This document shows, one piece after another, positions 9,769-32,885 of a stretch of DNA of 64,000 nucleotides. Within the stretch, counting starts at the first letter, position 1, and each line of letters starts with the position of its first letter. This DNA comes from Thermodesulfobacteriota bacterium (GTDB lineage: Bacteria; Desulfobacterota; BSN033; UBA1163), in contig JBEKUZ010000014.1 of the NCBI GenBank assembly GCA_049514515.1, forward strand, positions 2,955-66,954, written 5' to 3'. A program made the translations under genes and the position numbers. A model generated the notes under the pieces. The model saw only the letters and a list, made by a program, of their open reading frames with translations. It was not told the origin of the DNA and did no database searches.

Positions 9769-9788
9769 ATTGGAAAGGAGCGACTATC

Positions 9789-12131: not shown

Positions 12132-12257
12132 TCACTGAGTTTTAGCATCCGCCATATAGGAATTGAGGGATTGCGAAAATGGATGGTCTTCATGAATCCT
12201 TAAATTCCAAAATCCCTGAATTCAAAAATTCTATTTCGTTTCAATGAGGAAGTGCCT

Positions 12258-14785: not shown

Positions 14786-14804
14786 CGTAGCCGGAGGAAG
14801 AAAA

Positions 14805-16847: not shown

Positions 16848-19313
16848 ATGGAAGGGGTGAGGACCGAAGGGTTACCTTGTTTTCCTGTCAACCCGAAGGA
16901 AATAGGCTACCCCGGGACGGTTATGACTGTCAAAAAACCAACTGCGCCGACAAAAAGAAAGAAACCGCCCGAGCCACTTATCCTTGTCAAGAAGAAGGAG
17001 GTGGGCTCAGAGATGTTTCAATCCATCGCCGAATTGGGAAACGACGGGATCTTAGTATTTGATGATCGCTATCAGATCCAATTTGCAAATCGGATGGCTT
17101 CCGAAATCACCGGATATTCGAGCCGAGAGTTGCTGAAAATGTCGGTCCTCTCCCTTTTAGGCAAGCCCCATCCATCCTTTGTCGAAGACCTCTTCAGCCA
17201 TCCTGAACGTTATGGCGAGAAAACGTGCGCCGAGGTTCAGCTTTGCACCTCTCGTGAAGAGATCAAAGAGGTCGAGATTTGTATTGCCTTGGCGGAGGCA
17301 CCCCAAGGAGCCCGGAAGGGCTATGCCTACCTCCAAGATATTACGGAGTCGAAAAGAATGGAGCGGCGGATCCGGGAGGCCACCCAACAATTCGAGAAAA
17401 TCGCTGAGATGGGGGACGATGGAATCCTGGTCTTCGATCAGACGTTTAAGATCATTTTTGCCAATCAGATGGCCTCCGAAATCACCGGGATTCCCAAGAA
17501 AGAATTGATCGGAAGAAATTTCTTCTCGGTCATTGGAAAAGAGAACAAACAATTTCTTGAGGGAACGGTCACCCGCGGTGTGGGAATAGGCGAGAAGCTC
17601 TGCACCGAAATGAATATCCTGACCTCCCAGGGGCAGGTCAAGGATGCAGAGGTTTGTATTGCTTTGGCCGAGTCGGATACGGGAGAGGTTAAGACCTATG
17701 CGTACATCCGGGACATCACAGACCGGAAAAAATTCGAGAGGGACCTCAGGGATTCTGGGGAAAAACTCAGAGACCTCTTCGAAAGGGTGAGGCATGGTCT
17801 CTTCATCAGCTCGAAGGAGGGCAAGTTTTTGGACTGTAACCAGGCCCTGCTCGATATGCTGGGATATCCTACGAAAGAAGAATTTCTCAAAATAGATATC
17901 ACCCAGGATCTCTACGTCAACCCGGAGGATCGGAGAGCTTTTCAGGAGAGGATCGAAAGAGAGGGGCATGTCAAAGACTTGGAGGTGGAATTCAGAAAGG
18001 GGAACGGGGACAGGATCACCGTCTTGCTGACCTCTCACCCGATCAAGAATGAGAAGGGAGAGGTCGTCGGCTACCAGGGGATCAACCTGGATATCTCCGA
18101 GAGAAAGCGGATCGAGAATCAACTTCGCGAAGCCAATGAATTCTTCATGAACCTGATCGAGAGTTCCGTGGATGGGATCATCGCGGCGGACATGAAAGGC
18201 AATATCTTCATCTTTAACAAAGGAGCGGAGGCGCTGACCGGATACAAGGCAGAGGAGGTGATCGGCAAGCTCCATATTACCAAGATCTACAAAGAGGGCG
18301 TGGCGAAAGAAATCATGAAGAAACTCCGAAGCCAGGAATACGGGGGGGTAGGAAAATTTATTCCCACCCAGATGAACGCGGTCAATAAGTTTGGGAAAGA
18401 AATCCCCATTCAGCTCTCCGCCGCCCTCATCTATAACGGGAGCGGCCAGGAAATCGCCAGTGTGGGTATCTTTACGGATTTGAGACCCCGCCTGAACATG
18501 GAAAAGAAGCTCCAAGAGACCCACCTGCAACTAGTCAGTTCCGAGAAGATGGCGTCTCTCGGAAAACTGGCAGCGGGAATCGCCCATGAGATCAACAACC
18601 CTTTGGGTGGAATTCTTATTTACTCCAGTCTGATGATGGAGGACCTTCCCGAGACGGATTCGCGGCGGGCAGATTTGGTTCGAATCGTTCAGGAGGCAGG
18701 CCGCTGTAAGGAGATCGTCAAGAGCCTCCTTGAATTCGCTCGCCAAACCGAACCGAAGATGGAACCCACTGACATCAATCGAGCCATTACGGACGGACTC
18801 TTCTTCCTGGTGAATCAGGCTTTATTCCACAACATCCATATCGTGAAGAAACTCGACGCCTTCCTGCCCTTCGTCCGCGGAAATGCAAGCCAATTGAAAC
18901 AAGTCTTCATGAATATTATCGTGAATGCGGCAGAAGCGATGCGCGGCGGCGGAACGCTGACCATCACGACCTTCTGTGCCCCGGATCAGAAGACGGTCTT
19001 TGTGGAGTGTACCGATACCGGGGAGGGCATTCCCCCGGAGAACCTCACCCGAATCTTCGATCCCTTCTTCACCACCAAGGAGGTGGGAAAGGGGACGGGG
19101 CTGGGACTCGCCACTTCTTATGGAATCGTTGAGGACCACGGGGGAAAGATCAGCGTAAAAAGCCAGGCGGGTGAAGGCACCACGTTTACCATCGAGCTTC
19201 CCGTTCATCACGAAACGCAGGCGATCCTGGAAAACCCTTCCATTCAAGATCGAGGAGCATATGACGGAACTGAACGCACGGGAAAACCAGAAGGCAAATC
19301 CCTTCCTGTCTGA
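16848..19313 (+). CDS. cytoplasmic multi-PAS sensor histidine kinase (about 4 PAS, HisKA, HATPase_c)
   Basis: Repeated PAS blocks (GILVFD...FAN.MASEITG seen twice), an H-box AHEINNPLGGI, and G-boxes DTGEGI / GTGLGLA. No TM segment. The start is uncertain: 16848, 16923 or 17010. Confidence 0.8.
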   Translation: MEGVRTEGLPCFPVNPKEIGYPGTVMTVKKPTAPTKRKKPPEPLILVKKKEVGSEMFQSIAELGNDGILVFDDRYQIQFANRMASEITGYSSRELLKMSVLSLLGKPHPSFVEDLFSHPERYGEKTCAEVQLCTSREEIKEVEICIALAEAPQGARKGYAYLQDITESKRMERRIREATQQFEKIAEMGDDGILVFDQTFKIIFANQMASEITGIPKKELIGRNFFSVIGKENKQFLEGTVTRGVGIGEKLCTEMNILTSQGQVKDAEVCIALAESDTGEVKTYAYIRDITDRKKFERDLRDSGEKLRDLFERVRHGLFISSKEGKFLDCNQALLDMLGYPTKEEFLKIDITQDLYVNPEDRRAFQERIEREGHVKDLEVEFRKGNGDRITVLLTSHPIKNEKGEVVGYQGINLDISERKRIENQLREANEFFMNLIESSVDGIIAADMKGNIFIFNKGAEALTGYKAEEVIGKLHITKIYKEGVAKEIMKKLRSQEYGGVGKFIPTQMNAVNKFGKEIPIQLSAALIYNGSGQEIASVGIFTDLRPRLNMEKKLQETHLQLVSSEKMASLGKLAAGIAHEINNPLGGILIYSSLMMEDLPETDSRRADLVRIVQEAGRCKEIVKSLLEFARQTEPKMEPTDINRAITDGLFFLVNQALFHNIHIVKKLDAFLPFVRGNASQLKQVFMNIIVNAAEAMRGGGTLTITTFCAPDQKTVFVECTDTGEGIPPENLTRIFDPFFTTKEVGKGTGLGLATSYGIVEDHGGKISVKSQAGEGTTFTIELPVHHETQAILENPSIQDRGAYDGTERTGKPEGKSLPV

Positions 19314-19830
19314 AGTGGCTCAGGCCAGCGGCGAAAAAATTAGCGCCTGTTTTCAATGCCAGAAATGTTCGGCAGGATGTCCCATCGCTTATGCGATGGA
19401 TGTCCTCCCCAATCAAATGCTCCGTCACATCCAGTACGGCCATCGGGAAAAGGTCCTCACCTCAAACACGATTTGGATCTGCGCCTCCTGCTACACGTGC
19501 AGCGTTCGATGCCCGAATAACATCGATATTGCCAAAATCATGGATACATTAAGAGCGCTGGCCGTGCATTCTGAATTCAAACCCGGAGAAAAGGATATCC
19601 CCATTTTCCACTCCGCTTTTTTAGACACAATCAAATCAAGAGGCCGGATTCACGAGCTCAGCCTCATCCTCCAATTTAAATCCAAGACGAAAGATTTTTT
19701 TAAGGATGCTGCCTTGGGATGGAAGATGTACCGCAAGGGGAAGATTAAACTGCTGCCGTCGAAATTTTGCGGTGGAAAAAAAGAGGTTAAGGAGATTTTC
19801 AACGCTTTTGAGAAAGGAGCGAGACAATAA
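19261..19830 (+). CDS. hdrC: heterodisulfide reductase subunit C
   Basis: CFQCQKCSAGCP and CASCYTCSVRCP motifs in about 189 aa. SD gaggag precedes the ATG at 19261. The gene overlaps the 3' end of the histidine kinase gene by about 53 nt. Confidence 0.85.
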   Translation: MTELNARENQKANPFLSEVAQASGEKISACFQCQKCSAGCPIAYAMDVLPNQMLRHIQYGHREKVLTSNTIWICASCYTCSVRCPNNIDIAKIMDTLRALAVHSEFKPGEKDIPIFHSAFLDTIKSRGRIHELSLILQFKSKTKDFFKDAALGWKMYRKGKIKLLPSKFCGGKKEVKEIFNAFEKGARQ

Positions 19831-19975
19831 AGCACCAAATCCCAAGCACCAAACCCCAAACAATGACCAAAGCTCCAATGACCGAAATGTGTGGGTTGGG
19901 TCATTTGGGCATTGCTTATTGTAATTTATTTGGGATTTGGAATTTGGAGATTGGGATTTGAATTGCTGAGGAAGA
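19831..19975. repeat. long imperfect hairpin of CCAAATCCCAA / TTGGGATTTGG degenerate repeats (hdrC-hdrB spacer)
   Basis: The left arm is ccaaatcccaagcaccaaaccccaaa...aatgacc. The right arm is ggtcatt...atttgggatttggaatttggagattgggatttg. Confidence 0.75.
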
Positions 19976-19980
19976 TAAAA

Positions 19981-20832
19981 ATGAAAGAGGTCTCTTACTA
20001 TCCTGGATGCTCCCTTCACGGAACCGCCCGAGAGTACGATGATTCAATCCGAGGCGTATCCAAACTCCTCGATATTCAGCTCTACGAATTAGAGGATTGG
20101 ACCTGTTGCGGGGCGAGCTCAGCCCACTGCACGGATGAAAAGCTGGCCATCGATCTCGCCGCCCGGAATCTTGGTCTCGCCGAAAAGAACGATCGCGACT
20201 TGCTGGTCCCGTGTGTGGCATGCTACAGCCGATTTAAGGCAGCGGAGAAAGAGGTCAAGGAACACCCGGAAAAAGTCCATCTTTCCTACCACGGCAATGT
20301 CCCCATTCGATATGCACTGGACTTTTTCTGCGACGATGGCATCTTAGAAGAGGTGAAAAAAAAGCGCGCAAAGTCCCTCTCAGGGCTTAAGGTGGCTTGC
20401 TACTACGGTTGCCTTACCGTTCGACCTCCAAAAATGACAGGCGTGCGGGAATATGAGAACCCTCAACATATGGACCGATTGATGAAAACCCTGGGCGCTG
20501 ATCCTGTTCCATGGTGCTACAAAACCGATTGTTGTGGAGCCAGTCTCGTGATGACGCGGACAGACATCGTTAAGAAATTGAACGACCGCCTCCTCTCCAT
20601 GGCAATGGAGGCCGAGGCGGACTGTTTGGTCACGGGCTGTCCGATGTGTCAGGCCAATCTCGATACCCGCCAGGGAGAATTGGAGAAGGAGACGGGCAAG
20701 AGATACAATCTCCCCATCCTTTACTTTACGGAATTGATGGGGTTGGCCCTGGGTCATAAAGATGTCAGGAAATGGCTTCACCGGCACATCACAGACCCCA
20801 TGAAGATATTGAGTGCGAAGGGATTAATGTAA
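19981..20832 (+). CDS. hdrB: heterodisulfide reductase subunit B (two CCG domains)
   Basis: CCGAS motif present twice, in Cys-rich CCG-domain context. SD gaggaag precedes the ATG at 19981. Confidence 0.85.
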   Translation: MKEVSYYPGCSLHGTAREYDDSIRGVSKLLDIQLYELEDWTCCGASSAHCTDEKLAIDLAARNLGLAEKNDRDLLVPCVACYSRFKAAEKEVKEHPEKVHLSYHGNVPIRYALDFFCDDGILEEVKKKRAKSLSGLKVACYYGCLTVRPPKMTGVREYENPQHMDRLMKTLGADPVPWCYKTDCCGASLVMTRTDIVKKLNDRLLSMAMEAEADCLVTGCPMCQANLDTRQGELEKETGKRYNLPILYFTELMGLALGHKDVRKWLHRHITDPMKILSAKGLM

Positions 20833-20839
20833 TCAAATG

Positions 20840-20990
20840 CGTAAAATTCCAAGTACCAAGCACCAAATTCCAAATAAGCACCAATGTTCGAAATACGAAT
20901 TTACTAAACGAGAAAGTTTTGAATTTTGATATTGGAATTTGGGATTTGTTTGGGATTTGGAATTTGTGATTTGGAATTTAAAACGACCCA
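20840..20990. repeat. second CCAAAT(T/C)CCAA / TTGG(A/G)ATTTGG hairpin repeat block (hdrB-hdrA spacer)
   Basis: ccaagtaccaagcaccaaattccaaat ... attggaatttgggatttgtttgggatttggaatttgtgatttggaattt. Confidence 0.75.
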
Positions 20991-21013
20991 AAGAAAAGCC
21001 GCCGGAGTCAGGA

Positions 21014-24000
21014 ATGATGGGAGACCAAATGCAAGAAAAAGCTGGAGATAAAGTAGGAGCAGTGATGGTCGTCGGAGGTGGGATCGCCGGGATCCAAGCA
21101 TCCCTCGACCTCGCCGAATCTGGCTACTATGTCTATCTGGTGGAGTCGTCGCCTGCGATTGGCGGGGTGATGGCCCAATTGGATAAGACCTTCCCCACGA
21201 ACGACTGCTCCATGTGCATCATCTCTCCCAAGCTGGTCGAGGCAGGCCGTCATCTTAACATTCGTATCCTGACGGCCACCGATGTCGAAGGGATCTCAGG
21301 CGAGCCAGGAAATTTTACCGTCCGCCTTCATCAACATGCCCGCTTTGTGGACACGGCCAAATGCACGGGATGCGGTGATTGTGCAGCCGCCTGTCCCATC
21401 ATCCGTCCCGATGAGTTCAACGCCCTGCTCTCCACGCGCAAGGCGATCTACAAAAAATATCCCCAAGCCATCCCGAATGCCTTCGCCATCGAAAAACGTG
21501 GCGAAGCGCCATGCCGTAACGCCTGTCCGATTGAACAGCGCGCCATGGGCTATGTCGCACTCATCCGTGAGAAACGCTTTGCCGATGCGTACCGAACCAT
21601 CAAAGAAGATAACCCTTTCCCTTCCGTGTGCGGACGCGTATGCAACCACCGGTGTGAGGAGGCTTGCACGCGAACCGAGGTGGGAAGTGAACCCGTCAAC
21701 ATCATGCATTTCAAACGTTTTGTGAGCGACTGGGCATTCGCACATCCTGAAGAGATCCAGAAGGTGTACGCGTCGGGGGTCCAGAAAGCTCCGGATACCA
21801 GTGGAGCGGGGAAAAAAGTCGCCATTGTCGGCGCTGGTCCAGCGGGGTTGACCGCGGCCAACGACTTGATCCGTAAAGGTTACTCCGTGACCGTCTTCGA
21901 AGCGCTGCCTGCACCGGGTGGAATGATGCGCGTAGGCATCCCGGAATATCGCATGCCCTATGACTTGCTCCAATGTGAGATAGATGAAATCATCTCAAGA
22001 GGGGTGGAACTGAAGCTGAACCACCGCGTGCAAGATGTGACAGGGTTGCTCGAAGATTTTGACGCGGTCTTTGTTGCAGCAGGCGCTCATATTGGCATTA
22101 AGCTCCCTATCCCTGGAAATGACCTGCCCGATGTTCACATCACCACAGACTTCTTGCGCGAGGTCAGCCTTTCAGGAGCATCAAACATCAAATCAAAAAT
22201 TGCGAATAAACGCATCTTGGTCCTCGGTGGCGGGAATGTAGCCATTGATGCGGCTATGTCTTCAGTGCGAATGGGCGCAAGCTGGGTGGGCATGTCTTGC
22301 CTTGAGAGTCGAGAAAAAATGCCTGCCCACGATTGGGAAGTCCGTGACGCTCAGGATGAAGGCATTGATGTCTATCCCGGCCGAACGTTCAAGGAGGTAA
22401 CAAACAAAGACGGGTATATCACAGGCGTACGAACCGTCGACGTGGATTTCCGAGGCTTTATTGAAGGCCGGCCTGATTTTGACGAGATCCCCGGGACAGA
22501 GACAGTCATTCCTTGTGATGTGGTTATCTTTGCCATCGGCCAGAGGCCTGACCTTACTTTGTTGAGCAACAAGGTAGAGACGGTGCGCGGCCGGACAGTA
22601 GCGGCTGATAAAGACACACTTGCGACCAATGTGCCGGGGATTTTTGCTGGCGGCGATGTGGTCACGGGAACAACTTTTGTCGTGGATGCCATCTCTGCAG
22701 GACACAAGGCAGCGCGCTCGATTGAAGCCTACCTGAAACAGGAAGAGAAAGAAGCAAGGATATGGCCGCCGGTTTTAGAATCCATCGAAAAGCTCCCCGA
22801 GGCTAAACTCGAACCATCTCAGGCAAAACAGCTCATGGAGGTCAAGTCACAAGCTGCTCGTGCAGTCCCTAAAAAGCGTGAAGCGGGCGAGCGCAAGGGC
22901 GATTTTTCAGAAGTGGAATCAGGGCTGACCGAAGAAGAAGTGATCGAGGCAGCCAGGCGATGCCTGGAATGCGGCATCTGCTCCGAGTGTCTGCAGTGCG
23001 TCTTCGCCTGCCGTGCGGGGGCCGTCAATCATGATGACCGCGAGAAAATCGTTGACCTCCAGGTCGGAGCGGTCATTCTGACACCCGGGTTTAAAACCGT
23101 GGACGGAAATATTCGGCCCGAATTCGGCTACGGTGTCTACCCAAATGTCGTCACAAGCATCGAGTTCGAACGGATGCTCAGTGCCAGCGGCCCTTATGCC
23201 GGTGTGGTCCAGCGTCCTTCGGATGCAGGACACCCGCGAAAGATCGCTTTTATCCAGTGTGTCGGAAGCCGCGATATCTCTTGTGGACAGGATTACTGTT
23301 CATCCGTGTGCTGCATGTACGCGACGAAAGAGGCCATCATTGCCAAAGAACATGCCAATTTTGTCGAGCCCACCATCTTTTATATGGATGTCCGGGCTTA
23401 TGGGAAAGGGTTCGATGCGTATTATGAGAGAGCAAAATCCGAATACGGCGTCCGGTTCATCAAGTGTATGGTCTCCAGAATTAGGGAGCATTTTAAAACA
23501 AAAAATCTCCTGGTGACTTACCTGGATGAAGAAGCCAAGTTCGTGGAAGAGGAATTTGATTTGGTCGTTCTTTCTGTAGGCATGGTCCCATCCAAGGAAA
23601 CGGTTGAGATGGCGAAACGGATGGGCGTTGAGGTGGAGTCTCATGGATTCTGCAAGACAAAACCTTTCGAGCCCACCTCGACATCCAAACCAGGCGTCTA
23701 CGTCTGCGGGGTGTTTCAAGGGCCGAAAGACATCCCGGAAACGGTCTCTCAGGCAAGCGGTGCCGTGGCCGATGCCACAGGACTGATCGCTTCGGCACGG
23801 GGAACCATGGTCACCAAAAAAGAATATCCTCCCGAGGCGGATGTGACAGCGGAAGAACCCCGCATCGGCGTCTTCGTCTGCAATTGCGGCATCAACATCG
23901 GAGGCGTGGTCAATGTGCCTGAAGTCAGGGAGTACGCGAGGACACTGAAAAACGTCGTCCACGTTGAGGACAATCTCTACACCTGTTCCCAGGACACCCA

Positions 24001-25531
24001 GGGAAAAATCAAGAAAGCGATCGAAGAGAATCACCTGAATCGTGTCATTGTGGCCTCCTGTTCTCCAAGGACGCATGAACCGATGTTTAGAGAAACCTGC
24101 CGGGAGGCGGGATTAAATAAATACCTCTTTGAGATGGCAAACATCCGCGATCAATGTTCCTGGGTCCATATGCGGCAGAAGGATGAAGCGACGCTTAAGG
24201 CGAAGGACCTTGTCCGCATGGCCGTGGCCAACGCCCGCCTGATCCGAGCTCTCAGTGAAGTCGGATTGCCGGTGATCCAAAAAGGATTGGTCATCGGAGG
24301 AGGAGTGGCCGGGATGACCGCTGCGCTCAAGCTCGCAGAGCAAGGATACGAGATCTTCCTCCTCGAGAAAGAAGCCCAGTTAGGAGGAAATCTGAGAAAC
24401 CTTCACTATACCCTCGAAGGTCAAAATGTCCAGACCTTCTTAAAAGATTTGATTAACCGGGTCACGAACCATCCTCTGATCCATGTCATCACCAATGCCT
24501 TGGTGGTCGATTTCAGCGGCTCCAAAGGAAACTTCTCCACCGGAGTGATGGTGGCGCCTACCATGTATTACCGGAAGATTGAACATGGCATAACAATCTT
24601 GGCCACCGGCGCTCAAGAATGGAAACCAAACGAATACCTCTATGGCGAAGACCCGCGCGTTGTCACGCAGCTTGAATTAGAGAGTCGGATTGTCAATCAA
24701 CCCGAAGAGGTGGCCCGGGCCAATCACATTGTAATGATCCAATGTGTAGGGTCCCGGAACAAGGAGCGACCCAACTGCAGCCGAACTTGCTGCGCAACCG
24801 CCGTGAAGAATGCTCTTAAGATCAAAGAGCTGAACCCTAACGCCAATATCTCTATCCTCTACCGGGATGTGCGGACCTATGGCCTTGCAGAATCCTACTA
24901 CGCGAAAGCCCGGGAGCAAGGCATCCTGTTCATCCGATACGAACCGGAAGAGAAACCCGAAGTCAAGAAGGATGGGGAAGGTCTCCTTGTCTCCTATCTG
25001 GATAGAATCTTGAAAGAACGGATGGAGATAAGGCCTGACTTCGTGGTTCTTTCCGCAGCCACCATTCCGAGAGAGAATGAAGAATTGGCAACGATGCTGA
25101 AGGTCCCTCGTACGATGGAAGGTTTCTTTTTGGAAGCCCATATGAAGTTGAGGCCTGTTGACTTTGCAACCGATGGCATGTATCTTGCTGGTGGGGCCCA
25201 CGGACCGAAATTGATCAGCGAAACGATCACTCAGGCAAGTGCAGCAGCGTCTCGAGCCTGTACCATCTTATCCAAAGAGAAGATGCTGGTGGGCGGTGTG
25301 GTCGCCATGGTGGAGGGCGAGCGGTGTGCGGCCTGTTTGACGTGTGTAAGGGTTTGCCCTTATGAAGTCCCTGTGATCAATGTGAAGGGCGAGGCGGAGA
25401 TTGATCTGGCCAAGTGCAAAGGCTGCGGCAGTTGCGCGGCCGAGTGCCCGGCCAGAGCGATAGAGTTGATGCACTTCAGAGATCCCCAACTGTGGGCCAA
25501 GTGCGAAGCCCTTGTGGAAGCAAGTGTATGA
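21014..25531 (+). CDS. hdrA: giant HdrA-family flavoprotein: HdrA module, inserted GltD-like NAD(P)H:FeS oxidoreductase module, second HdrA module, C-terminal 2x[4Fe-4S]
   Basis: About 1505 aa. N-terminal VVGGGIAGIQASLDLA (FAD). GltD-like block PCRNACP...CGRVCNHRCEEAC / KVAIVGAGPAGL / ILVLGGGNVAIDAA. The HdrA Cys motif IQCVGSRD and a second copy (VIGGGVAGMTAALKLA ... IQCVGSRN). Terminal ferredoxin CxxCxxCxxxCP appears twice. Confidence 0.85.
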   Translation: MMGDQMQEKAGDKVGAVMVVGGGIAGIQASLDLAESGYYVYLVESSPAIGGVMAQLDKTFPTNDCSMCIISPKLVEAGRHLNIRILTATDVEGISGEPGNFTVRLHQHARFVDTAKCTGCGDCAAACPIIRPDEFNALLSTRKAIYKKYPQAIPNAFAIEKRGEAPCRNACPIEQRAMGYVALIREKRFADAYRTIKEDNPFPSVCGRVCNHRCEEACTRTEVGSEPVNIMHFKRFVSDWAFAHPEEIQKVYASGVQKAPDTSGAGKKVAIVGAGPAGLTAANDLIRKGYSVTVFEALPAPGGMMRVGIPEYRMPYDLLQCEIDEIISRGVELKLNHRVQDVTGLLEDFDAVFVAAGAHIGIKLPIPGNDLPDVHITTDFLREVSLSGASNIKSKIANKRILVLGGGNVAIDAAMSSVRMGASWVGMSCLESREKMPAHDWEVRDAQDEGIDVYPGRTFKEVTNKDGYITGVRTVDVDFRGFIEGRPDFDEIPGTETVIPCDVVIFAIGQRPDLTLLSNKVETVRGRTVAADKDTLATNVPGIFAGGDVVTGTTFVVDAISAGHKAARSIEAYLKQEEKEARIWPPVLESIEKLPEAKLEPSQAKQLMEVKSQAARAVPKKREAGERKGDFSEVESGLTEEEVIEAARRCLECGICSECLQCVFACRAGAVNHDDREKIVDLQVGAVILTPGFKTVDGNIRPEFGYGVYPNVVTSIEFERMLSASGPYAGVVQRPSDAGHPRKIAFIQCVGSRDISCGQDYCSSVCCMYATKEAIIAKEHANFVEPTIFYMDVRAYGKGFDAYYERAKSEYGVRFIKCMVSRIREHFKTKNLLVTYLDEEAKFVEEEFDLVVLSVGMVPSKETVEMAKRMGVEVESHGFCKTKPFEPTSTSKPGVYVCGVFQGPKDIPETVSQASGAVADATGLIASARGTMVTKKEYPPEADVTAEEPRIGVFVCNCGINIGGVVNVPEVREYARTLKNVVHVEDNLYTCSQDTQGKIKKAIEENHLNRVIVASCSPRTHEPMFRETCREAGLNKYLFEMANIRDQCSWVHMRQKDEATLKAKDLVRMAVANARLIRALSEVGLPVIQKGLVIGGGVAGMTAALKLAEQGYEIFLLEKEAQLGGNLRNLHYTLEGQNVQTFLKDLINRVTNHPLIHVITNALVVDFSGSKGNFSTGVMVAPTMYYRKIEHGITILATGAQEWKPNEYLYGEDPRVVTQLELESRIVNQPEEVARANHIVMIQCVGSRNKERPNCSRTCCATAVKNALKIKELNPNANISILYRDVRTYGLAESYYAKAREQGILFIRYEPEEKPEVKKDGEGLLVSYLDRILKERMEIRPDFVVLSAATIPRENEELATMLKVPRTMEGFFLEAHMKLRPVDFATDGMYLAGGAHGPKLISETITQASAAASRACTILSKEKMLVGGVVAMVEGERCAACLTCVRVCPYEVPVINVKGEAEIDLAKCKGCGSCAAECPARAIELMHFRDPQLWAKCEALVEASV

Positions 25532-25612
25532 GTTCGGAGTTCAGAGTTCGGAGTATCTGGTTTTGTCTCCGAACTCCGAGCTAAATTACTCCCAACTATA
25601 AATAGAGGGTTG
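25532..25612. repeat. about 80-nt hairpin element (GAGTTCGGAGTTCAGAGTTCGGAGT...TCTCCGAACTCCGAGC + CTAAATTACTCCCAACTAT); copy 1
   Basis: Near-identical copy at 26866-26960. The arms are inverted repeats. Confidence 0.8.
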
Positions 25613-25614
25613 AG

Positions 25615-26133
25615 ATGGAGGCAGTTCAGCGGAAAATGGAATCAGGGCACGGGCCGCAAAGGACGGACACGGATCACGGACACGGACACGTTTTTGAGCC
25701 CGAGGTCCTGGCCTTTTGCTGTGAGCATTGAGCCTACAGTGCGGCGGACCTGGCAGGTTCGATGAGGCTCAACTACCCTACGAACGTGAAGATTGTGAAG
25801 GTTCCCTGCACAGGGAGAGTGGATATCCTCCTCATTCTCCATGCCTTTGAATCAGGGGTGGATGGAGTTTACCTGGCAGGGTGCTTGGAGGGAGAGTGTC
25901 ATTTCTTGAGAGGTAATTTAAGGGCCAAGAAGAGAGTTCAGTATGCGAAGAAATTATTAGATGAGGTAGGATTAGGAGGGGCTCGACTAGAGATGTACAA
26001 CATGAGCTCGGCTCAAGGTCAGCGTTTTGCCGAGGTCGCCCGTGAGATGACAGAGAAAATAAAAGCCTTGGGGCCGTCACCCGTTAAGAACAGGGTCCGA
26101 GGGGTCCAGGATTCTAGGGGTCAAGTGAAGTAA
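25615..26133 (+). CDS. mvhD: MvhD/FlpD-family [2Fe-2S] protein with in-frame UGA (predicted selenocysteine) at 25729-25731
   Basis: The ORF track calls only 25762-26133, which begins inside the conserved MvhD core (NVKIVKVPCTGRVD...GCLEGECHF). Reading upstream in frame gives ...FEPEVLAFCCEH-TGA-AYSAADLAGS, which aligns with the MvhD N-terminal motif EPKIVGFLCNWCSYAGADLAG. The TGA falls on the conserved Cys. The ATG at 25615 has a GAGGG SD. Confidence 0.65.
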
Positions 26134-26172
26134 TTAAAAAAAAACTTGAACCCTCGAACCCTTGAATTCTTG
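26126..26172. repeat. tandem degenerate CTTGAA(C/T)CC repeats in the mvhD-metV2 spacer
   Basis: cttgaaccctcgaacccttgaattcttgaatcc. Confidence 0.6.
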
Positions 26173-26194
26173 AATCCTTTCATTGGAGGTTAGA

Positions 26195-26863
26195 ATGATC
26201 GTAGCGAATCGCAAATCACTGGAAGAAATCCTTAACATGCTCAAGCCCTACAAGAAGGTCCTTCTATTGGGTTGTAATGAGTGTGTGACAGTATGTGCCG
26301 CTGGGGGTGAAAGAGAGGTGGGGGTTCTGGCCTCAGAACTAAAGCTCTCCCGTGCCAAGGATGGCCAGGAGATCGAGATCAAAGAGCAGACCCTGGAGCG
26401 TCAATGTGACCATGAATACATTGACCAAGTCCGTCCTTTTGTGGGAGACTATGAGGTGATCTTATCGATAGCCTGTGGGGCTGGGATACAATATGTGGGA
26501 GAGAAATATCGGACGAAAATCGTCCTTCCTGGGGTCAACACGACCTTTCTTGGAGTCACCCTGGAGCAGGGGGTCTGGAGTGAGCGGTGTCAGGGGTGCG
26601 GGGAGTGTGTACTGCATATGACCGGAGGGGTCTGTCCGATCGCTCGGTGTGCGAAGAGTCTGCTCAACGGGCCTTGCGGGGGGTCTTCGAATGGGAAGTG
26701 CGAAGTGGACAAGGATCTGGACTGTGGTTGGCAGTTGATCATCGACAGGCTTAAGGAACTCAATCAATTGGATCGCTATGAGGAGATCATCCCGGTGAAG
26801 GATTGGACGACCTCTCGGGATGGGGGACCGCGCAAGAGGCTGAGAGAAGACTTGAGGTTATAA
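26195..26863 (+). CDS. metV: MetV-type small subunit of methylene-THF reductase (copy 2)
   Basis: Same Cys motifs as copy 1 (GCNECVTVC, CQGCGECV, CPIARCAKSLLNGPCGG). SD ggaggt precedes the ATG at 26195. Confidence 0.8.
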   Translation: MIVANRKSLEEILNMLKPYKKVLLLGCNECVTVCAAGGEREVGVLASELKLSRAKDGQEIEIKEQTLERQCDHEYIDQVRPFVGDYEVILSIACGAGIQYVGEKYRTKIVLPGVNTTFLGVTLEQGVWSERCQGCGECVLHMTGGVCPIARCAKSLLNGPCGGSSNGKCEVDKDLDCGWQLIIDRLKELNQLDRYEEIIPVKDWTTSRDGGPRKRLREDLRL

Positions 26864-26865
26864 GT

Positions 26866-26960
26866 TATGAGTTCGGAGTTCAGAGTTCGGAGTGAAGAAC
26901 TCAAAAAAATCAAAAACTCCGAACACCGAACTAAATTACCCCGAACTATCTTTAAGGGTA
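26866..26960. repeat. about 80-nt hairpin element, copy 2 (GAGTTCGGAGTTCAGAGTTCGGAGT ... AACTCCGAACACCGAACTAAATTACCCCGAACTAT)
   Basis: Duplicate of 25532-25612. Confidence 0.8.
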
Positions 26961-26964
26961 AAAG

Positions 26965-27888
26965 ATGAAGACGAAGTCGAACATTGAGCGAATATTAGAA
27001 AGTGGTGGGTTTGTGGTGACATCGGAGTGCGGGCCGCCGAGGGGAGCGGATCCGGAGGTAATCCGAAAAAAAGGGAATCTGCTCAAGGGGGTGGTGGATG
27101 CCGTCAATGTCACGGACAATCAGACCTCAGTGGTGAGAATGAGCTCCTTTTCATCCTGTATCATCCTCAAAGAGATGGGGTTTGATCCGATCCTGCAGAT
27201 GGTCTGTCGGGACCGGAACCGGATAGCGATCCAGAGTGACATCTTGGGGGCAGGGGCCTTGGGGATCAACAACATTCTCTGCCTCTCGGGGGACCATCAG
27301 AAATTTGGGGATCATCCGAAGGCAAAAAATGTCTTTGATATAGACTCCATCCAGTTAATCAATACGGTCAAGATCCTAAGAGATGATGGGAAATTTCTGG
27401 GGGGTGAGGAAGTCAAAGGAAAACCCGTACTCTTCATTGGGGCTGCGGAGAATCCCTTTGCGGACCCGTTTGAGATCCGGGCAGCGAGATTAGGGAAGAA
27501 AGTGAAGGCGGGGTGTGAATTTATCCAGACCCAGTGTATCTACAACATGGAAAAGTTTACCAAGTGGATGGAGATGGTGAGGGATCGGGGGCTACACGAG
27601 AGGTGTGCGATCCTGGCAGGGGTGACGCCGTTTAAGTCGGTCGGGATGGCGAAATACATGAAGAATTCGGTGCCCGGGATGGACGTGCCGGATGGGATGA
27701 TCGAGAGGATGAAGGGGGTGGCCAAGGAGAAGCAGTCGGAGGAAGGGATCAAGATCTGTGTGGAGACGATTCAGAAGCTGAGGGAGATCCCTGGGGTGCG
27801 GGGGATCCATATCATGGCGATCGAGTGGGAGGAGAAGGTGGCAGAGATCGCTCAGAGTGCAGGACTGCTGCCAAGACCGCAAGTATAA
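26965..27888 (+). CDS. metF: 5,10-methylenetetrahydrofolate reductase, acetogen-type (copy 3)
   Basis: 307 aa, about 65% identical to copy 1 over its full length. Follows metV2 as in the hdrCBA-mvhD-metVF arrangement. Confidence 0.88.
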   Translation: MKTKSNIERILESGGFVVTSECGPPRGADPEVIRKKGNLLKGVVDAVNVTDNQTSVVRMSSFSSCIILKEMGFDPILQMVCRDRNRIAIQSDILGAGALGINNILCLSGDHQKFGDHPKAKNVFDIDSIQLINTVKILRDDGKFLGGEEVKGKPVLFIGAAENPFADPFEIRAARLGKKVKAGCEFIQTQCIYNMEKFTKWMEMVRDRGLHERCAILAGVTPFKSVGMAKYMKNSVPGMDVPDGMIERMKGVAKEKQSEEGIKICVETIQKLREIPGVRGIHIMAIEWEEKVAEIAQSAGLLPRPQV

Positions 27889-27892
27889 ACAG

Positions 27893-27955
27893 ACGTGACC
27901 GTGGTACGTGTCACGTGTCCGCAAAAGATCAAACCCCACGGACACGGTCACGATG
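27893..27955. repeat. hairpin GACGTGACCGTG..CGTGTCACGTGTCCG / CGGACACGGTCACG (same family as 7381)
   Basis: gacgtgaccgtggtacgtgtcacgtgtccg...acggacacggtcacg. Confidence 0.7.
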
Positions 27956-27975
27956 AAAAAAGGAGGGGCAAAAAG

Positions 27976-28359
27976 ATGGCAAAGAAGATTTTGATCGTTG
28001 ATGATGATCCGGATTTGGTGGAAGCAGTAACCATGATCTTAGAATCTAAGAAATATGACGTGGCCGCTGCCTATGGCGGGATCGAGGGTCTTCAAAAAGC
28101 TAAGACCGAAAAACCGGACCTTATCGTTCTCGATGTCATGATGCCGGACAAAGATGGATACATCGTGTGCAAGGAATTGAAGGCCGATTCCAAGCTGAGC
28201 AAGATCCCGGTGCTTCTGCTGACGGCAGTGGTCTCCAAGATTTCTACGACCCGCTACACACAACAAATGGGAATGGAAACCGAAGCAGACGATTATATCG
28301 ACAAGCCCGTAGAGCCGGAAGTATTGGTGAAACGGATCGAAGCCCTTTTGTCGAAATGA
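27976..28359 (+). CDS. single-domain CheY-like response regulator (receiver only)
   Basis: MAKKILIVDDD...DVMMPDKDG...K with conserved Asp and Lys positions. SD aaaggagggg. Confidence 0.8.
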   Translation: MAKKILIVDDDPDLVEAVTMILESKKYDVAAAYGGIEGLQKAKTEKPDLIVLDVMMPDKDGYIVCKELKADSKLSKIPVLLLTAVVSKISTTRYTQQMGMETEADDYIDKPVEPEVLVKRIEALLSK

Positions 28360-28371
28360 AATGTCGAATGC

Positions 28372-28458
28372 CAAATTCCCTGCCTTCGCCGGAGCGCCTG
28401 CCCTCCGCAAGGCTTCTGGAGGCGGGGCTTCGCGCAGGCAGGCAAATGCCAAAGGAAT
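28372..28458. repeat. large imperfect palindrome flanked by AATGCCAAA (CCCTGCCTTCGC...GCGCAGGCAGG)
   Basis: Directly follows the response-regulator gene stop; may act as a terminator or operator. Confidence 0.5.
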
Positions 28459-28489
28459 GACAAATGTTTAAGTCTCAAGATACTTTTAA

Positions 28490-28552
28490 TTTGAACTTTG
28501 GAATTTGAACTCGGTTTGAACTTTGAGTTTTGACATTTGACATTTTGTATTG
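28490..28552. repeat. tandem TTTGAACT/TTTGACA degenerate repeats
   Basis: tttgaactttggaatttgaactcggtttgaactttgagttttgacatttgacatttt. Confidence 0.6.
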
Positions 28553-28561
28553 AGGCCGAAG

Positions 28562-30064
28562 ATGCCAGACCAGGCAAACATCCTCGTCATTGACGATGAG
28601 CAAATCATGAGGGATGGCTGCTCACGCATCCTCTCAAGAGACGGATGCTCTGTCCTCTGCGCTGATAACGGAAGCCAGGGATTGGAGGAGATCAAGAGCC
28701 ATCCCGAGAAGATGGATGTCATTCTCCTCGATCTCATGATGCCTGGCATGAGCGGAATGGAAGTGCTGGATCACATTCGGACTTTCGATCCCAACCTTCT
28801 CGTGATCGTCATCACCGGTTATGCCACCGTAGAATCGGCCGTGGAGGCGATGAAGAAGGGGGCTTACGATTTCATCCCCAAACCTTTCACGCCGGACCAG
28901 CTCCGCATCGTGGTCAGAAGGGCGTTGGAGAGGAGAACCCTCCAGAAAGAAACAGAGTTCCTGCGGAGAGAACGGGAGAAATCCCTTCGGGATATCGCCA
29001 CGGAAAAGTCGAAGATCAAAACCATCATCAATTGCATGGGCGACGGGGTCTTGGTGTGCGATCGGGACAGCTGCATTGTCCTCTCGAATCCAGCGGCCAG
29101 TCGGATGCTGAAGACCTCTGAGACTCTTCTGCTCGGAAATTACCTCAATCAGTGTAACCTCCCCTCTGAGTTGTCCAAGATCATGGAAGAAAGTCTTCAG
29201 GCAAAAGACATGAGCTATGCTTCTGTTTCGCAGGAATTGAGCGCCGGCGAGTCTGGAGATATCTTTCTCCGTGCCCATACAGCCCTTGTACGAAACGATA
29301 TCGGTGAGATTATGGGTTCTGTCACCGTGCTCCAAGACATCAGCCATCTCAAAGAACTCGATAGGATGAAATCAGAGTTTATTGCCATGGTCACCCACGA
29401 GCTTCGGGCCCCAATCGCCGCGGTCGAACAGCAGTTGACCGTCATCCTGAATAAAATGGCCGGCGACGTGACGGAGAAGCAGGAACAGCTTCTTTCCCGT
29501 GCCAAACAGAGAACAAGAGGTCTTCTCGACCTGATCAAAGATCTCCTGGATCTTTCCAAAATCGAAGCAGGAAAGATGGTCCAATACAAAGAGCCCCTCC
29601 TCCTTCAAGAGGTGATCCAAAGAGTGGTGGATTTGATGAGGGCCGAGGCGGAAAACAAAAAGATCGATCTTCAATTCTCCACGCCTCCCAAGTTATCCTT
29701 AATCAATGCAGATCGCAACAGTATGGAGGGAATCTTTACCAACCTCATCTCCAATGCCATCAAATATACCCCCGAGGGAGGAAAGGTTTGGGTCGCTCTC
29801 GGTGAAGAGGGCGGATTTGTGAAGGCGACCGTCTCTGACACAGGCATTGGCATTAAGAAAGGAGATCTTGGCAGAATCTTTGATAAATTTTACCGAGTGA
29901 AGTCCACAGAGACCCGTCAGATCGTCGGGACTGGTCTCGGACTTTCTATTGTCAAGAGCATCGTGGATGCCCATCTTGGATCTATCTCCGTTGAAAGCGA
30001 GGAGGGAAACGGAACCACCTTCATCCTCCTCCTGCCCAAAGAATTGAATCCGGCCCCTTGCTAA
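28562..30064 (+). CDS. hybrid sensor: N-terminal receiver (REC), PAS, HisKA and HATPase_c histidine kinase
   Basis: NILVIDDE...DLMMPGMSG (REC); H-box THELRAPI; ATP-lid GTGLGLSIV. Confidence 0.85.
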   Translation: MPDQANILVIDDEQIMRDGCSRILSRDGCSVLCADNGSQGLEEIKSHPEKMDVILLDLMMPGMSGMEVLDHIRTFDPNLLVIVITGYATVESAVEAMKKGAYDFIPKPFTPDQLRIVVRRALERRTLQKETEFLRREREKSLRDIATEKSKIKTIINCMGDGVLVCDRDSCIVLSNPAASRMLKTSETLLLGNYLNQCNLPSELSKIMEESLQAKDMSYASVSQELSAGESGDIFLRAHTALVRNDIGEIMGSVTVLQDISHLKELDRMKSEFIAMVTHELRAPIAAVEQQLTVILNKMAGDVTEKQEQLLSRAKQRTRGLLDLIKDLLDLSKIEAGKMVQYKEPLLLQEVIQRVVDLMRAEAENKKIDLQFSTPPKLSLINADRNSMEGIFTNLISNAIKYTPEGGKVWVALGEEGGFVKATVSDTGIGIKKGDLGRIFDKFYRVKSTETRQIVGTGLGLSIVKSIVDAHLGSISVESEEGNGTTFILLLPKELNPAPC

Positions 30065-30338: not shown

Positions 30339-30842
30339 GTGAACAACGAAGAAACAGAGATTAAAGAAAAAACCAGAGCCATCTTAGAGGGCTTAGAGAG
30401 CAATAGAGAAAATCTCATACCCATTCTGCAGAAGATCCAGGAAGAGTTGGGATATCTTCCTCCCTATGCCATGATCGAGGTGGCCCGGTTTCTTAACATA
30501 CCGGAGATCGATGTCTACAGTGTAGCTACCTTCTACAACCAGTTTCGTCTCACGCCTCCTGGTAAACATTCCATAAGAGTTTGCATGGGAACTGCCTGCC
30601 ATGTGAAGGGCGGCCACATCGCTTTAGCAGCCTGGCAAAGGAGATTGAAAATAGGTCCAGGCGAAACTTCCCCTGACCGCGAGTTTGACCTCGACACAGT
30701 GGCCTGTGTGGGCTGCTGCGCCATGGCACCCGTGACCGTTGTGGATAAGAAAGTGGAAGCCAAAGCCGATCCGACGAAGGTAGACGGAATCCTTCTCTCC
30801 TATCAGCTCCAAAAAGAAAAAGAAGAAAAGGAAAACAATTGA
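30339..30842 (+). CDS. NuoE/HoxE/HndA-like thioredoxin-fold [2Fe-2S] subunit
   Basis: Cys pattern C..GTACHVKG ... CVGCCAMAP. The GTG start is preceded by aggcaaagg. Confidence 0.8.
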   Translation: MNNEETEIKEKTRAILEGLESNRENLIPILQKIQEELGYLPPYAMIEVARFLNIPEIDVYSVATFYNQFRLTPPGKHSIRVCMGTACHVKGGHIALAAWQRRLKIGPGETSPDREFDLDTVACVGCCAMAPVTVVDKKVEAKADPTKVDGILLSYQLQKEKEEKENN

Positions 30843-32731
30843 AGTTCGAAGAAATAAAAATGCAGGCCCAATCTCGCTGGCAGGAGATCTGGAGTGGCCA
30901 AATGCCAGTGGTTCTGGTCGGGACGGCCACTTGCGGCAGAGCGGCTGGCGCACTCGAAGTCCTTCAGGCAATAAAAGACACAGTAAAAAAACAAAATCTC
31001 AACTGCCTCATCTATGAAGTGGGCTGCATGGGGCACTGTTATGCAGAACCTTTGATCATCCTCCGGAAACCGGGATTTCCTTCCATCTGCTACGGCCACG
31101 TCAGTCCCGTATTAGCTGAGAATTTGGTTACCAACCTTATCTTAAATGATGACCCATCCCTTGAATTTGTTCTCGGATCCCTGGAGGAGAACGATCTTAT
31201 CCCCAGTTTTTCTGATTTTCCGAGGTCAAAATATGAAAAACGAATCCTCCTAAAAAATTGCGGACACATCAACCCGGAAGAGATAGAGCATTATATTGCG
31301 AATGGTGGATATGAAAGTCTGTCAAAAGCTCTCCAGATGAAACCAGTGGAGATTGTATCGGAGGTCAAGCGGTCTAAGCTGCGCGGTCTGGGAGGTGCAG
31401 GGTTTCCGACCGGAGAGAAGTGGGATGTCTGCCGTCACTCAGAAGGAGAACCAAAATATCTGATCTGTAACGGCGATGAAGGCGATCCCGGGGCTTTCAT
31501 GGACCGGGCGATCCTGGAAAGCGACCCCCACTCCGTAATCGAGGGAATGGTCATTGCAGGCTATGCCATCGGGGCCCGTCATGGTTATATCTATGTTCGA
31601 GCTGAATATCCTCTGGCCGTGCAAAGGGTTCGGAATGCCCTGCTCCAGGCAGAAAAATACAAATTTCTTGGAGAAAATATTCTTGGGAGTGGCCTCAGCT
31701 TTGACATCAAACTCTTTCAAGGTTCAGGTGCTTTTGTCTGCGGGGAGGCAACGGCACTGATTGCCTCCATAGAGGGAAAACCTGGAATGCCCCGCCACCG
31801 CCCGCCACGCGTGGCCGTCCAAGGTCTTTTCGGAAAACCAACGATCCTCAATAATGTGAAAACCCTTGCCTATGTTCCTCACATCATCAAAAACGGGGCA
31901 GATTGGTTTTTACAAACGGGCACTGAGAGAAGTAAGGGCACAGCCGTCTTCGCCCTTGCAGGCAAAGTGGTCAATACAGGTTTAGTAGAAGTGCCTATGG
32001 GCACCACACTTCGCCAGCTCGTCTTCCAGGTGGGCGGCGGCATCACCAAAGGCAAACGTTTCAAGGCTGTTCAAATCGGCGGCCCCTCCGGCGGATGCCT
32101 TCCGGAGTCGGCTCTCGGTCTCCCGATTGATTTCGATTCATTGCAGGAAAGCGGAGCGATGATGGGTTCAGGAGGAATGGTCGTCCTTGATGAAGACGAC
32201 TGCATGGTTGAAGTCGCTCGCTATTTTCTCGACTTTACCCAAAAAGAGTCCTGCGGAAAGTGTACCTTATGTCGTCTTGGAACCAAGCAGATGCTCGACA
32301 TTCTCGAGGACATCACCAAGGGCCATGGGATGATGGAAGATCTCGAGACGCTCGAGCAATTGGCAGAGGACATCAAACAAGGATCACTCTGTGGCCTGGG
32401 CAGAACCGCACCCAACCCGGTGCTCACAACCCTGCGATATTTCCGGGAGGAATACGAGGCTCACATCAAAGAAGGACGCTGCCCGGCATTGATGTGCCAG
32501 ACCCTGATCGCATACTACATCCTCCCTGAAAAATGCGCACGCGGGTGCGATGCCTGCGTTGGGACTTGTACCGTTGAAGCGATCACTACCGACAAGAAGA
32601 GGAGAATCAAGGTCATCGACCAGGAAAAATGTGTCAAGTGCAATACATGCCTTGCTGCATGTCCTCCTCAATACGATGCGGTCGTCAGATTATCACCACC
32701 CGACAAGGTACCTAAGTCAGAGGGAAAGTAA
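30839..32731 (+). CDS. NuoF/HoxF/HndC-like NADH-binding FMN subunit with N-terminal [2Fe-2S] and C-terminal 2x[4Fe-4S] extensions
   Basis: GLGGAGFPTG (FMN/NADH site), CGKCTLCR, and terminal CxxCxxCxxxCP. The TTG start overlaps the upstream stop (TTGA); an alternative ATG is at 30860. Confidence 0.8.
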   Translation: MKFEEIKMQAQSRWQEIWSGQMPVVLVGTATCGRAAGALEVLQAIKDTVKKQNLNCLIYEVGCMGHCYAEPLIILRKPGFPSICYGHVSPVLAENLVTNLILNDDPSLEFVLGSLEENDLIPSFSDFPRSKYEKRILLKNCGHINPEEIEHYIANGGYESLSKALQMKPVEIVSEVKRSKLRGLGGAGFPTGEKWDVCRHSEGEPKYLICNGDEGDPGAFMDRAILESDPHSVIEGMVIAGYAIGARHGYIYVRAEYPLAVQRVRNALLQAEKYKFLGENILGSGLSFDIKLFQGSGAFVCGEATALIASIEGKPGMPRHRPPRVAVQGLFGKPTILNNVKTLAYVPHIIKNGADWFLQTGTERSKGTAVFALAGKVVNTGLVEVPMGTTLRQLVFQVGGGITKGKRFKAVQIGGPSGGCLPESALGLPIDFDSLQESGAMMGSGGMVVLDEDDCMVEVARYFLDFTQKESCGKCTLCRLGTKQMLDILEDITKGHGMMEDLETLEQLAEDIKQGSLCGLGRTAPNPVLTTLRYFREEYEAHIKEGRCPALMCQTLIAYYILPEKCARGCDACVGTCTVEAITTDKKRRIKVIDQEKCVKCNTCLAACPPQYDAVVRLSPPDKVPKSEGK

Positions 32732-32885
32732 TAATTTTGGTATTTTGAAAAGAGAAAGGAAGACATCATTCAGAGGTGCCATTCCTGCGGAAGCAGGAAT
32801 CCATTTCTTTAAAAACCTTTCTGGATTTCCACTGGAGTTTACCCCGTACTTGATACGGGGTGGGAAGGACACGATACAGCGACAA

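Follow-up and report, generated by a model that had tools for sequence, protein, structure and literature searches.

Gene organization of the locus

The mvhD gene described here lies within a Wood-Ljungdahl island of the 64-kb window, i.e., the whole stretch of DNA that was analyzed. By Pfam annotation, this island comprises genes for the corrinoid Fe-S protein activase RACo (353-2401), CooC (2398-3144), FolD (3220-4110), AcsD (4405-5361), CooS (5401-7368), AcsB (7472-9679), AcsC (9741-11132), AcsE (11229-12131), MetF (12252-13175), MetV (14655-15479), a further MetF (15836-16798) and a PAS histidine kinase (16848-19313). Positions 19171-27888 then hold, on one strand, the Pfam-supported gene order hdrC-hdrB-hdrA(large)-mvhD-metV-metF. 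A response regulator with a hybrid kinase (27895-30064) and NuoE/F/G-like proteins (30339-33557) were annotated beyond this cluster, also by Pfam.

All six genes of the cluster are on the plus strand. The hdrC-like 4Fe-4S dicluster protein (19171-19830; Pfam Fer4_17 / Fer4_8) is called as 189 aa in identical contigs, and its true start is probably later than 19171, since the open reading frame overlaps the upstream histidine kinase gene. It is followed by an hdrB-like protein with two copies of the CCG domain (19891-20832) and by a large HdrA-like protein of the HdrL type (20939-25531; 1505-1530 aa), which was assigned with Pfam and PDB alignments. The large HdrA aligns with methanogen HdrA (5odc_A / 8rvu_a) in four blocks, and a GltD/NfnB-like NAD(P)H module, which aligns with NfnA, GltD and the small chain of dihydropyrimidine dehydrogenase (DPD), is inserted at residues ~159-663. 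It keeps a DCSMC pair (nt 21203-21217) equivalent to Cys202/Cys205 of Methanothermobacter marburgensis HdrA. The gene ends at an ordinary TGA (25529-25531) at the expected C-terminus, which indicates that TGA normally terminates translation in this genome. An hdrA-mvhD fusion through read-through of this TGA was considered and rejected, as the two genes (starts 20939 and 25615) are in different frames. Downstream of mvhD, Pfam identified metV (26183-26863; PF12225, DUF5981, the methylene-tetrahydrofolate reductase C-terminal domain) and metF (26965-27888; methylenetetrahydrofolate reductase, MTHFR).

Reading frame and domain coverage of mvhD

Between the large hdrA and metV, mvhD occupies 25615-26133 of the plus strand as a single reading frame, the sole interruption of which is a TGA at 25729-25731. 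The full-length coding sequence has 172 codons, with the predicted selenocysteine (Sec) at codon 39 and a TAA stop at 26131-26133, and on the upstream side the frame is bounded by a TAG at 25603-25605, which lies in the same frame. Its translation reads MEAVQRKMESGHGPQRTDTDHGHGHVFEPEVLAFCCEH up to the TGA and continues after it with AYSAADLAGSMRLNYP..., so that the residues immediately around the UGA are CCEH-U-AYSAADLAGSMR.

The original prediction had pointed out that the list of open reading frames starts mvhD at 25762. This shorter frame of 123 aa (25762-26133, plus strand), which automatic gene callers report, begins at a conserved internal methionine, Met50. The frame had also been proposed to stay open upstream of this point and to encode the MvhD N-terminus, and the profile search bore this out. 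When the TGA was read as Cys, the product covered positions 1-123 of 123 of the Pfam FlpD profile (PF02662) with residues 31-153 (E = 6.8e-49). Read-through of the TGA is needed for this full coverage, and the 25762 frame thus misses profile positions 1 to ~19, with the CCxxC motif among them. In Cys-type homologues (FEPxIVAFCCxYCAY), the third Cys of this motif stands where mvhD has the TGA.

The same truncation is widespread in public protein sets. In a large protein collection, all of the closest relatives (83-95% identity) have a length of 116-149 residues and start at the same internal methionine (MRLNYP...), and about one quarter of the best 120 database relatives begin at the same methionine as the 25762 frame. 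The exact 123-residue short product is recorded in 73 blocks of the collection; these records include GCA_002311635.1 (contig DBZJ01000244.1, matching the compared ~20-kb stretch) as well as several metagenome samples from JGI/ENA. At 62-77% identity, the more distant relatives are no longer cut short: these full-length proteins carry the sequence FEPxIVAFCCxYCAYxAADLAGSMRL, in which a Cys takes the place of the TGA; Moorellaceae MvhD is amongst these full-length Cys-type matches, at 62-63% identity in the alignment. Altogether, mvhD is almost certainly 49 codons longer than the gene callers report, and this branch of MvhD is systematically miscalled in public protein sets as a protein of 123-132 residues.

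The most likely translation start of the full-length gene, judged from sequence, is the ATG at 25615. A Shine-Dalgarno-like GAGGG, already pointed out in the original prediction, is present on the plus strand at 25605-25609, 5 nt before this ATG, and most of the mvhD orthologues displayed have a GAGG-like motif ahead of their first ATG. The ATG at 25615 had been described as the only start in frame; a second in-frame ATG was found at 25636 (Met8). The first position is favored over the second because the orthologues keep an MxEAVQ-type start and because the closest orthologue of mvhD (L007) has Ile where Met8 stands. Many TGA-form orthologues begin with MEAVQ, MAEAV or MTEAV and continue with a linker of low complexity and variable sequence. 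Across the TGA-forms, the Sec codon lies 14 to 64 codons after the first ATG. The start at 25615 brings an ACGGAC tandem repeat into the coding sequence, as had been anticipated (25663-25690, plus strand; period 6 and 4.5 copies by TRF; encoding TDTDHGHGH). This repeat is merely a part of the variable N-terminal linker, and the N-terminal extension as a whole is restricted to the clade.

Conservation of the TGA codon and selection on the flanking codons

Orthologues of mvhD were collected from one genome per species, which gave 80 loci, mostly from metagenome-assembled genomes (MAGs) labelled Thermodesulfobacteriota, Deltaproteobacteria, Syntrophaceae, Syntrophorhabdales or Acidobacteriota; a single isolate, Desulfoferrobacter suflitae DRH4, was amongst them. 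The aligned codon was TGA in 73 loci and TGT or TGC in six, and the remaining locus (L069) was unmatched by the motif scan. Complete or nearly complete genomes with the TGA form include OY762209.1, OY761556.1, CAVXWK010000001.1 and the isolate D. suflitae DRH4 (NZ_JAIBKA01), in which the residues around the codon are AFCCSY-U-AYSAADLAGSMR. A scan of metagenomes with a Cys-type query (P0002), meant to enlarge the set of Cys-forms, added 71 further distinct sequences, all of the TGA form, leaving a Cys control set of six sequences. The combined set consisted of 146 distinct TGA-form and six Cys-form (TGT/TGC) sequences from Thermodesulfobacteriota and Acidobacteriota. Across the 146 orthologous sequences, the stop codon at this position was always TGA and never TAA or TAG. 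The six Cys-forms and the full-length database relatives place a Cys at this position, in agreement with the original prediction that the TGA sits where a conserved Cys belongs.

Selection was assessed with Nei-Gojobori-style counts over 3000 randomly drawn pairs of TGA-forms. Purifying selection acts on the 12 codons before the TGA (-12 to -1), where pS is 0.74, pN 0.075 and pN/pS 0.10. These codons therefore evolve as coding sequence translated in the same frame, which excludes a decaying remnant. Values were also obtained for codons +1 to +4 after the TGA (pS 0.84, pN 0.055, pN/pS 0.07), +12 to +40 (pS 0.69, pN 0.115, pN/pS 0.17) and +41 to +100 (pS 0.77, pN 0.118, pN/pS 0.15). Codons +5 to +10, which hold the hairpin described below, gave pS 0.03, pN 0.000 and pN/pS 0.00.

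A SECIS-like hairpin downstream of the TGA

The original prediction placed a short hairpin about 15 nt downstream of the UGA and suggested that it could serve as a bacterial SECIS element. A hairpin with the sequence CGGACCU-GGC-AGGUUCG was indeed located at 25745-25761 of the plus strand, 13 nt after the UGA; it spans 17 nt and consists of 7 bp and a GGC loop. With the U of the UGA counted as position 1, it occupies positions 17-33 and pairs as C-G, G-C, G-U, A-U, C-G, C-G and U-A. It can alternatively be drawn with 6 bp and a 5-nt UGGCA loop, in which the U-A pair is open.

Folding the region, which had been proposed as a check, gave a divided answer. The bare hairpin folds at -6.9 kcal/mol (z = -2.7) and a 47-nt window around the TGA reaches z = -2.1, while windows of 62-131 nt around the TGA gave z = -0.06 to -0.47 and were no better than shuffles, so that single-sequence folding by itself is a weak argument. 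Additionally, Rfam returned no match for the whole window at gathering thresholds, nor for 25650-25850 at E <= 10. The support for the hairpin comes from the comparative data and not from folding energy.

In the TGA-forms, all seven pairs are kept in 143 of 146 sequences and six of seven in the other three. The variation consists of U-A changed to U-G in 11 sequences and of the terminal C-G pair lost in three, with nothing else, and the GGC loop is invariant (146/146). The six codons of the hairpin, GCG GAC CTG GCA GGT TCG, are essentially fixed; for the neighboring Ala, Leu and Pro residues, in contrast, between three and six synonymous codons occur. Expressed as rates, synonymous sites at the hairpin show a pS of 0.03 against 0.69-0.84 in all other segments. 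In the six Cys-forms the encoded amino acids do not differ here, yet the hairpin synonymous sites vary and only three to four of the seven pairs are retained. The RNA is therefore constrained exactly when the codon is TGA, as would be expected of a bacterial SECIS element, and this strengthens the earlier suggestion. Pairing was judged from a per-pair table and from contrasts in synonymous rate. As the hairpin hardly varies, almost no compensatory double changes are available, and the case for pairing rests on conservation and compatible single changes. The occurrence of the same TGA and the same hairpin in 146 distinct orthologues is far beyond chance. We regard the hairpin at 25745-25761 as a candidate SECIS element, which would act by binding SelB, by analogy with known bacterial elements.

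Correspondence to a known selenocysteine position

A phmmer search of the PDB with the read-through product returned MvhD/VhuD chains with E = 1e-34 to 1e-42, aligned from residue 27. The best match was chain 9sfi_K, the VhuD of the Hdr-Vhu-Fwd assembly of Methanococcus maripaludis (E = 1.8e-42, residues 27-158). The mvhD TGA aligns with an X in this chain, which is the published CxxU Sec position, i.e., the first Sec of M. maripaludis VhuD, and the second X aligns with Cys90 of the mvhD product. In M. marburgensis MvhD (9sw2_D), the aligned residue is Cys16. The alignment with VhuD/MvhD that had been suggested as a check thus put the UGA on the Sec of VhuD and on Cys16 of MvhD.

The Sec-MvhD family is already known in both archaea and Desulfobacterota. 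MvhD/VhuD (PF02662) is listed with the motif CxxU as a prokaryotic selenoprotein family in a 2026 review (PMC13188914), and the mvhD motif C36-E-H-U39 fits it. Four Sec-mvhD genes, each adjoining hdrA or the large hdrL, have been described in Desulfobacterium autotrophicum HRM2 (PMC2702500). Together with 9sfi_K, these reports agree with the original statement that Sec-containing MvhD and VhuD occur in methanococci and Desulfobacterota. The Geobacter MvhD homologue BamF carries Sec19 at this site, for which a selenenylsulfide intermediate has been proposed (bioRxiv 10.64898/2026.04.10.717634), and recent cryo-EM work counts Cys16 of M. marburgensis MvhD amongst the candidates for mediating electron transfer. 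In addition, Deltaproteobacteria are typically rich in selenoproteins (PMC9312934).

Search for Sec machinery and other recoding in the window

Searches of the 64-kb window for the Sec machinery were negative: selA, selB and selD were not found among its ~45 Pfam-annotated open reading frames, and ARAGORN identified no tRNA, hence no tRNA-Sec. A search of the window for other TGA-interrupted genes gave no convincing case, and only the mvhD site looks real. Separately, an in-frame TAG in a thiol peroxidase gene (63258-63260, minus strand) was considered as a candidate for pyrrolysine recoding and rejected, as full-length relatives of 97-98% identity have Tyr at this position.

Interpretation of the interrupted frame

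The sequence evidence points to mvhD being a selenoprotein gene in which the UGA at 25729-25731 is decoded as Sec by means of the downstream hairpin, a reading to which we assign a probability of roughly 0.93. Other explanations of an interrupted frame need to be weighed against it. The gene could be truncated or pseudogenized, with translation from the ATG at 25762 and the upstream frame left as a decaying remnant. The choice of 25762 by gene callers and an AGGU 3 nt ahead of this ATG would fit such an event. However, the AGGU falls within, and belongs to, the conserved hairpin, and Met50 is not a start signal, since it is conserved in the Cys-forms as well. The product would also lack FlpD positions ~1-19, including the CC..C motif, and, over 146 sequences in which synonymous change is saturated, the 12 codons ahead of the TGA show a pN/pS of 0.10, making truncation extremely unlikely. 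Continued selection on both sides of the TGA would be expected too of a split protein, in which the UGA ends a 38-residue peptide, reinitiation at the ATG at 25762, only 30 nt past the UGA, yields a 123-residue part, and the two halves assemble. Yet the solved MvhD/VhuD chains are all single polypeptides, continuous across the equivalent junction, and a split would leave without reason both a hairpin that is frozen only in the TGA-forms and the invariable use of TGA, never TAA or TAG, in 146 sequences. A split gene is therefore exceedingly improbable.

It is also conceivable that the UGA is decoded without selenium as Trp, Gly or Cys, either through a reassigned code or through near-cognate read-through; the frame is clearly read through, and homologues have Cys at the position. 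Against this stand the adjacent hdrA-like gene, which stops at TGA with the expected C-terminus, and the window, which holds no other gene with an internal TGA. Moreover, a frozen hairpin limited to the TGA-forms is a signature of SECIS-dependent decoding, and the aligned position is Sec in the structurally characterized VhuD and BamF. We consider a standard amino acid at this codon very unlikely.

With decoding of the UGA as Sec as the preferred explanation, the following sequence of events can be proposed. Translation would begin at the ATG at 25615, to which both the Shine-Dalgarno-like motif and the conserved MxEAVQ start point. For the UGA at 25729-25731, the bacterial SECIS would be the hairpin at 25745-25761, which, by analogy with the SelB-SECIS systems of E. 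coli and Moorella, would bring SelB-GTP-Sec-tRNA(Sec) to the ribosome and thereby lead to the insertion of Sec in place of termination. The product would be a 172-residue MvhD with the motif C36-x-x-U39, in which U39 matches Cys16 of M. marburgensis MvhD by alignment. A likely role for U39 is that of a redox-active selenol beside the [2Fe-2S] cluster, where it may help electrons to move between this cluster and, in the large HdrA-like subunit, the CxxC pair/FAD. The transfer would presumably take place in an HdrCB-HdrA(large)-MvhD-MetVF complex, an Hdr-type methylene-THF reductase of the Wood-Ljungdahl pathway.

Distribution of the clade and implications

The genomic context of the Sec-mvhD clade is conserved across loci: HdrA is encoded upstream in 117 of 121 loci, a MetV homologue downstream in 113 of the 115 loci with enough flank, and MetF downstream in all loci with enough flank (59/59). 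The clade thus belongs to the HdrCBA-MvhD-MetVF cluster of the Moorella type.

The hosts are uncultured Thermodesulfobacteriota and Acidobacteriota MAGs, many of them labelled Syntrophales/Syntrophaceae or Syntrophorhabdales, and several come from peat, soil and groundwater. Two paralogous Sec-mvhD loci are often present per genome, and the tie to hdrA-mvhD-metV-metF clusters is almost without exception.

What is new is that a large and consistently miscalled clade joins a known selenoprotein family; knowledge of selenoprotein families as such is unchanged. The added value is modest and lies in the tight tie of Sec-mvhD to the methylene-THF reductase cluster of uncultured bacteria from peat and soil, Acidobacteriota among them, and in the placement of Sec at a site that current work considers as a relay for electrons during HdrA-type bifurcation. 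[quoted passage not shown] A Sec-MvhD at the methylene-THF reductase step would link the C1 metabolism of uncultured syntroph-like bacteria to selenium availability, and metabolic reconstructions of MAGs from peat, soil and groundwater miss the selenium need of this MvhD branch.

It is possible, though we hold it as a tentative and rather doubtful idea, that the clade defines a selenium-dependent version of the Hdr-type methylene-THF reductase in which the selenol at the non-ligand, Cys16-equivalent site is functionally important. If the selenol does matter in the one-to-two-electron hand-over between the [2Fe-2S] cluster of MvhD and the CxxC/FAD of HdrA, the supply of selenium would set a condition for flux through the Wood-Ljungdahl pathway in these organisms, and the thiol/selenol relay model of HdrA-type electron bifurcation could be tested on the natural Sec/Cys pair that the clade offers.

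Comparison with known systems

The candidate SECIS resembles the bacterial elements of the E. coli fdhF and Moorella type in being a stem-loop within the coding sequence, soon after the UGA, with invariant G residues in the apical loop. The E. coli SECIS begins 11 nt after the UGA, compared with a spacing of 13 nt here. The element described here also differs in its 3-nt loop (5 nt if the U-A pair opens) and in having no obvious bulged U; a loop of 3 nt is at the small end of the range for bacterial SECIS elements.

M. maripaludis VhuD and the mvhD product share PF02662 and a Sec at the same aligned CxxU position, and VhuD partners with HdrA, as the mvhD product is predicted to do. VhuD carries a second Sec where the mvhD product has Cys90, lacks the N-terminal extension and functions in a hydrogenase-Hdr complex, whereas mvhD has the extension and lies in a MetVF cluster. 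As VhuD is archaeal, its SECIS is located in an untranslated region and not within the coding sequence. BamF of Geobacter metallireducens, from the class II benzoyl-CoA reductase, is a similar MvhD-homologous adaptor with a [2Fe-2S] cluster and Sec at this site, where a relay to the bifurcating FAD through a selenenylsulfide has been suggested (bioRxiv 10.64898/2026.04.10.717634). BamF exceeds the mvhD product in length by over 100 residues, carries additional Rossmann and winged helix-turn-helix (wHTH) domains, and belongs to the BamB-I complex for aromatic ring reduction, in contrast to the C1-metabolism cluster that contains mvhD.

Closer in gene context are mvhD1, 2, 3 and 5 of D. autotrophicum HRM2, which also encode a bacterial Sec-MvhD directly downstream of HdrA or of HdrL, a large HdrA/glutamate-synthase fusion (PMC2702500). 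The hdrA/hdrL partners in D. autotrophicum are often selenoproteins, whereas the large HdrA here has Cys (DCSMC) and no internal TGA. The downstream partners differ as well, being dsr, fdh and mvhAG in D. autotrophicum and metV-metF here, the two systems being likened by description only. The HdrCBA-MvhD-MetVF clusters of Moorella thermoacetica and Sporomusa ovata have the same gene order as the cluster in the window, and the unusually large HdrA of ~1505 aa is comparable in size to the 162.8-kDa HdrA of M. thermoacetica (PMC9430772). The Moorella/Sporomusa Hdr-MetVF complex is only partly characterized, and the Moorella and Sporomusa accounts leave selenium in MvhD unmentioned (PMC9430772). 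The Moorellaceae homologues recovered in the protein search have Cys at the codon that is TGA in the clade described here.

Distribution and duplication of Sec-mvhD loci

Among the 80 mvhD loci found by scanning one genome per species, two distinct copies of Sec-mvhD, the mvhD gene in which selenocysteine would be read at an in-frame TGA, were located on separate contigs in many MAGs (pairs L008/L010, L009/L018, L013/L025, L014/L019, L017/L024, L020/L022, L031/L032, L035/L038 and L037/L039), with the TGA and the downstream SECIS-like hairpin common to both loci of each pair. It follows that genomes frequently hold this selenoprotein cluster in duplicate. The same TGA was also observed in loci from MAGs labelled Acidobacteriota (L049, L056, L058-L060, L064, L077 and L080), including the closed 6.9-Mb chromosome OY761556.1, and the hairpins of these loci were nucleotide-identical to those of Thermodesulfobacteriota. 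This identity suggests that the cluster may have been transferred laterally or, alternatively, that very strong constraint is at work.

Genomic surroundings of mvhD

Both spacers flanking mvhD contain tandem repeats. The hdrA-mvhD intergenic region (25531-25597, + strand), with a GAGTTCG tandem repeat at 25530-25554, is predicted to form a hairpin of very high stability (-29.1 kcal/mol, z = -5.2), which was equalled by 0 of 200 shuffles. No T-run was found 3' of this hairpin, which may act as an intra-operon mRNA-stabilising or processing structure. The mvhD-metV spacer carries a CTTGAATC-like tandem repeat (26145-26179, + strand; period 8, 4.4 copies) preceded by an A-run, and folding of this repeat gave no significant predicted structure.

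Three MetF paralogues (12252-13175, 15836-16798 and 26965-27888) and two MetV paralogues (14655-15479 and 26183-26863) were identified within one 28-kb Wood-Ljungdahl island, where just one MetV/MetF set adjoins hdrCBA-mvhD. The island also includes a 219-residue ORF (13255-13914, + strand), which, like a 386-residue ORF adjoining two CoA-transferase genes (45689-46849, + strand), had no match in a Pfam search.

Other genes in the window

A thiol-peroxidase (Tpx/Redoxin) lipoprotein gene (63069-63746, minus strand) is interrupted by an in-frame TAG at 63258-63260, at a codon that specifies a conserved Tyr in relatives, and its frame stays open downstream for 62 further Tpx-like codons. In the public collection searched for exact protein products, the truncated protein of 145 aa appears in 70 blocks. 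Recoding of the TAG was considered and rejected, given that relatives sharing 97-98% identity encode the complete protein (208 aa), in which this position is Tyr. The TAG is a population-specific nonsense mutation, representing a pseudogene or a polymorphism.

Lastly, a single 952-residue ORF (53383-56241, minus strand) encodes both an iron-containing alcohol dehydrogenase (Fe-ADH) and an aldehyde:ferredoxin oxidoreductase (AFOR), the latter represented by its AFOR_N and AFOR_C domains. By its predicted domain content, this is an unusual fusion that would combine two consecutive steps of acid-to-alcohol reduction.
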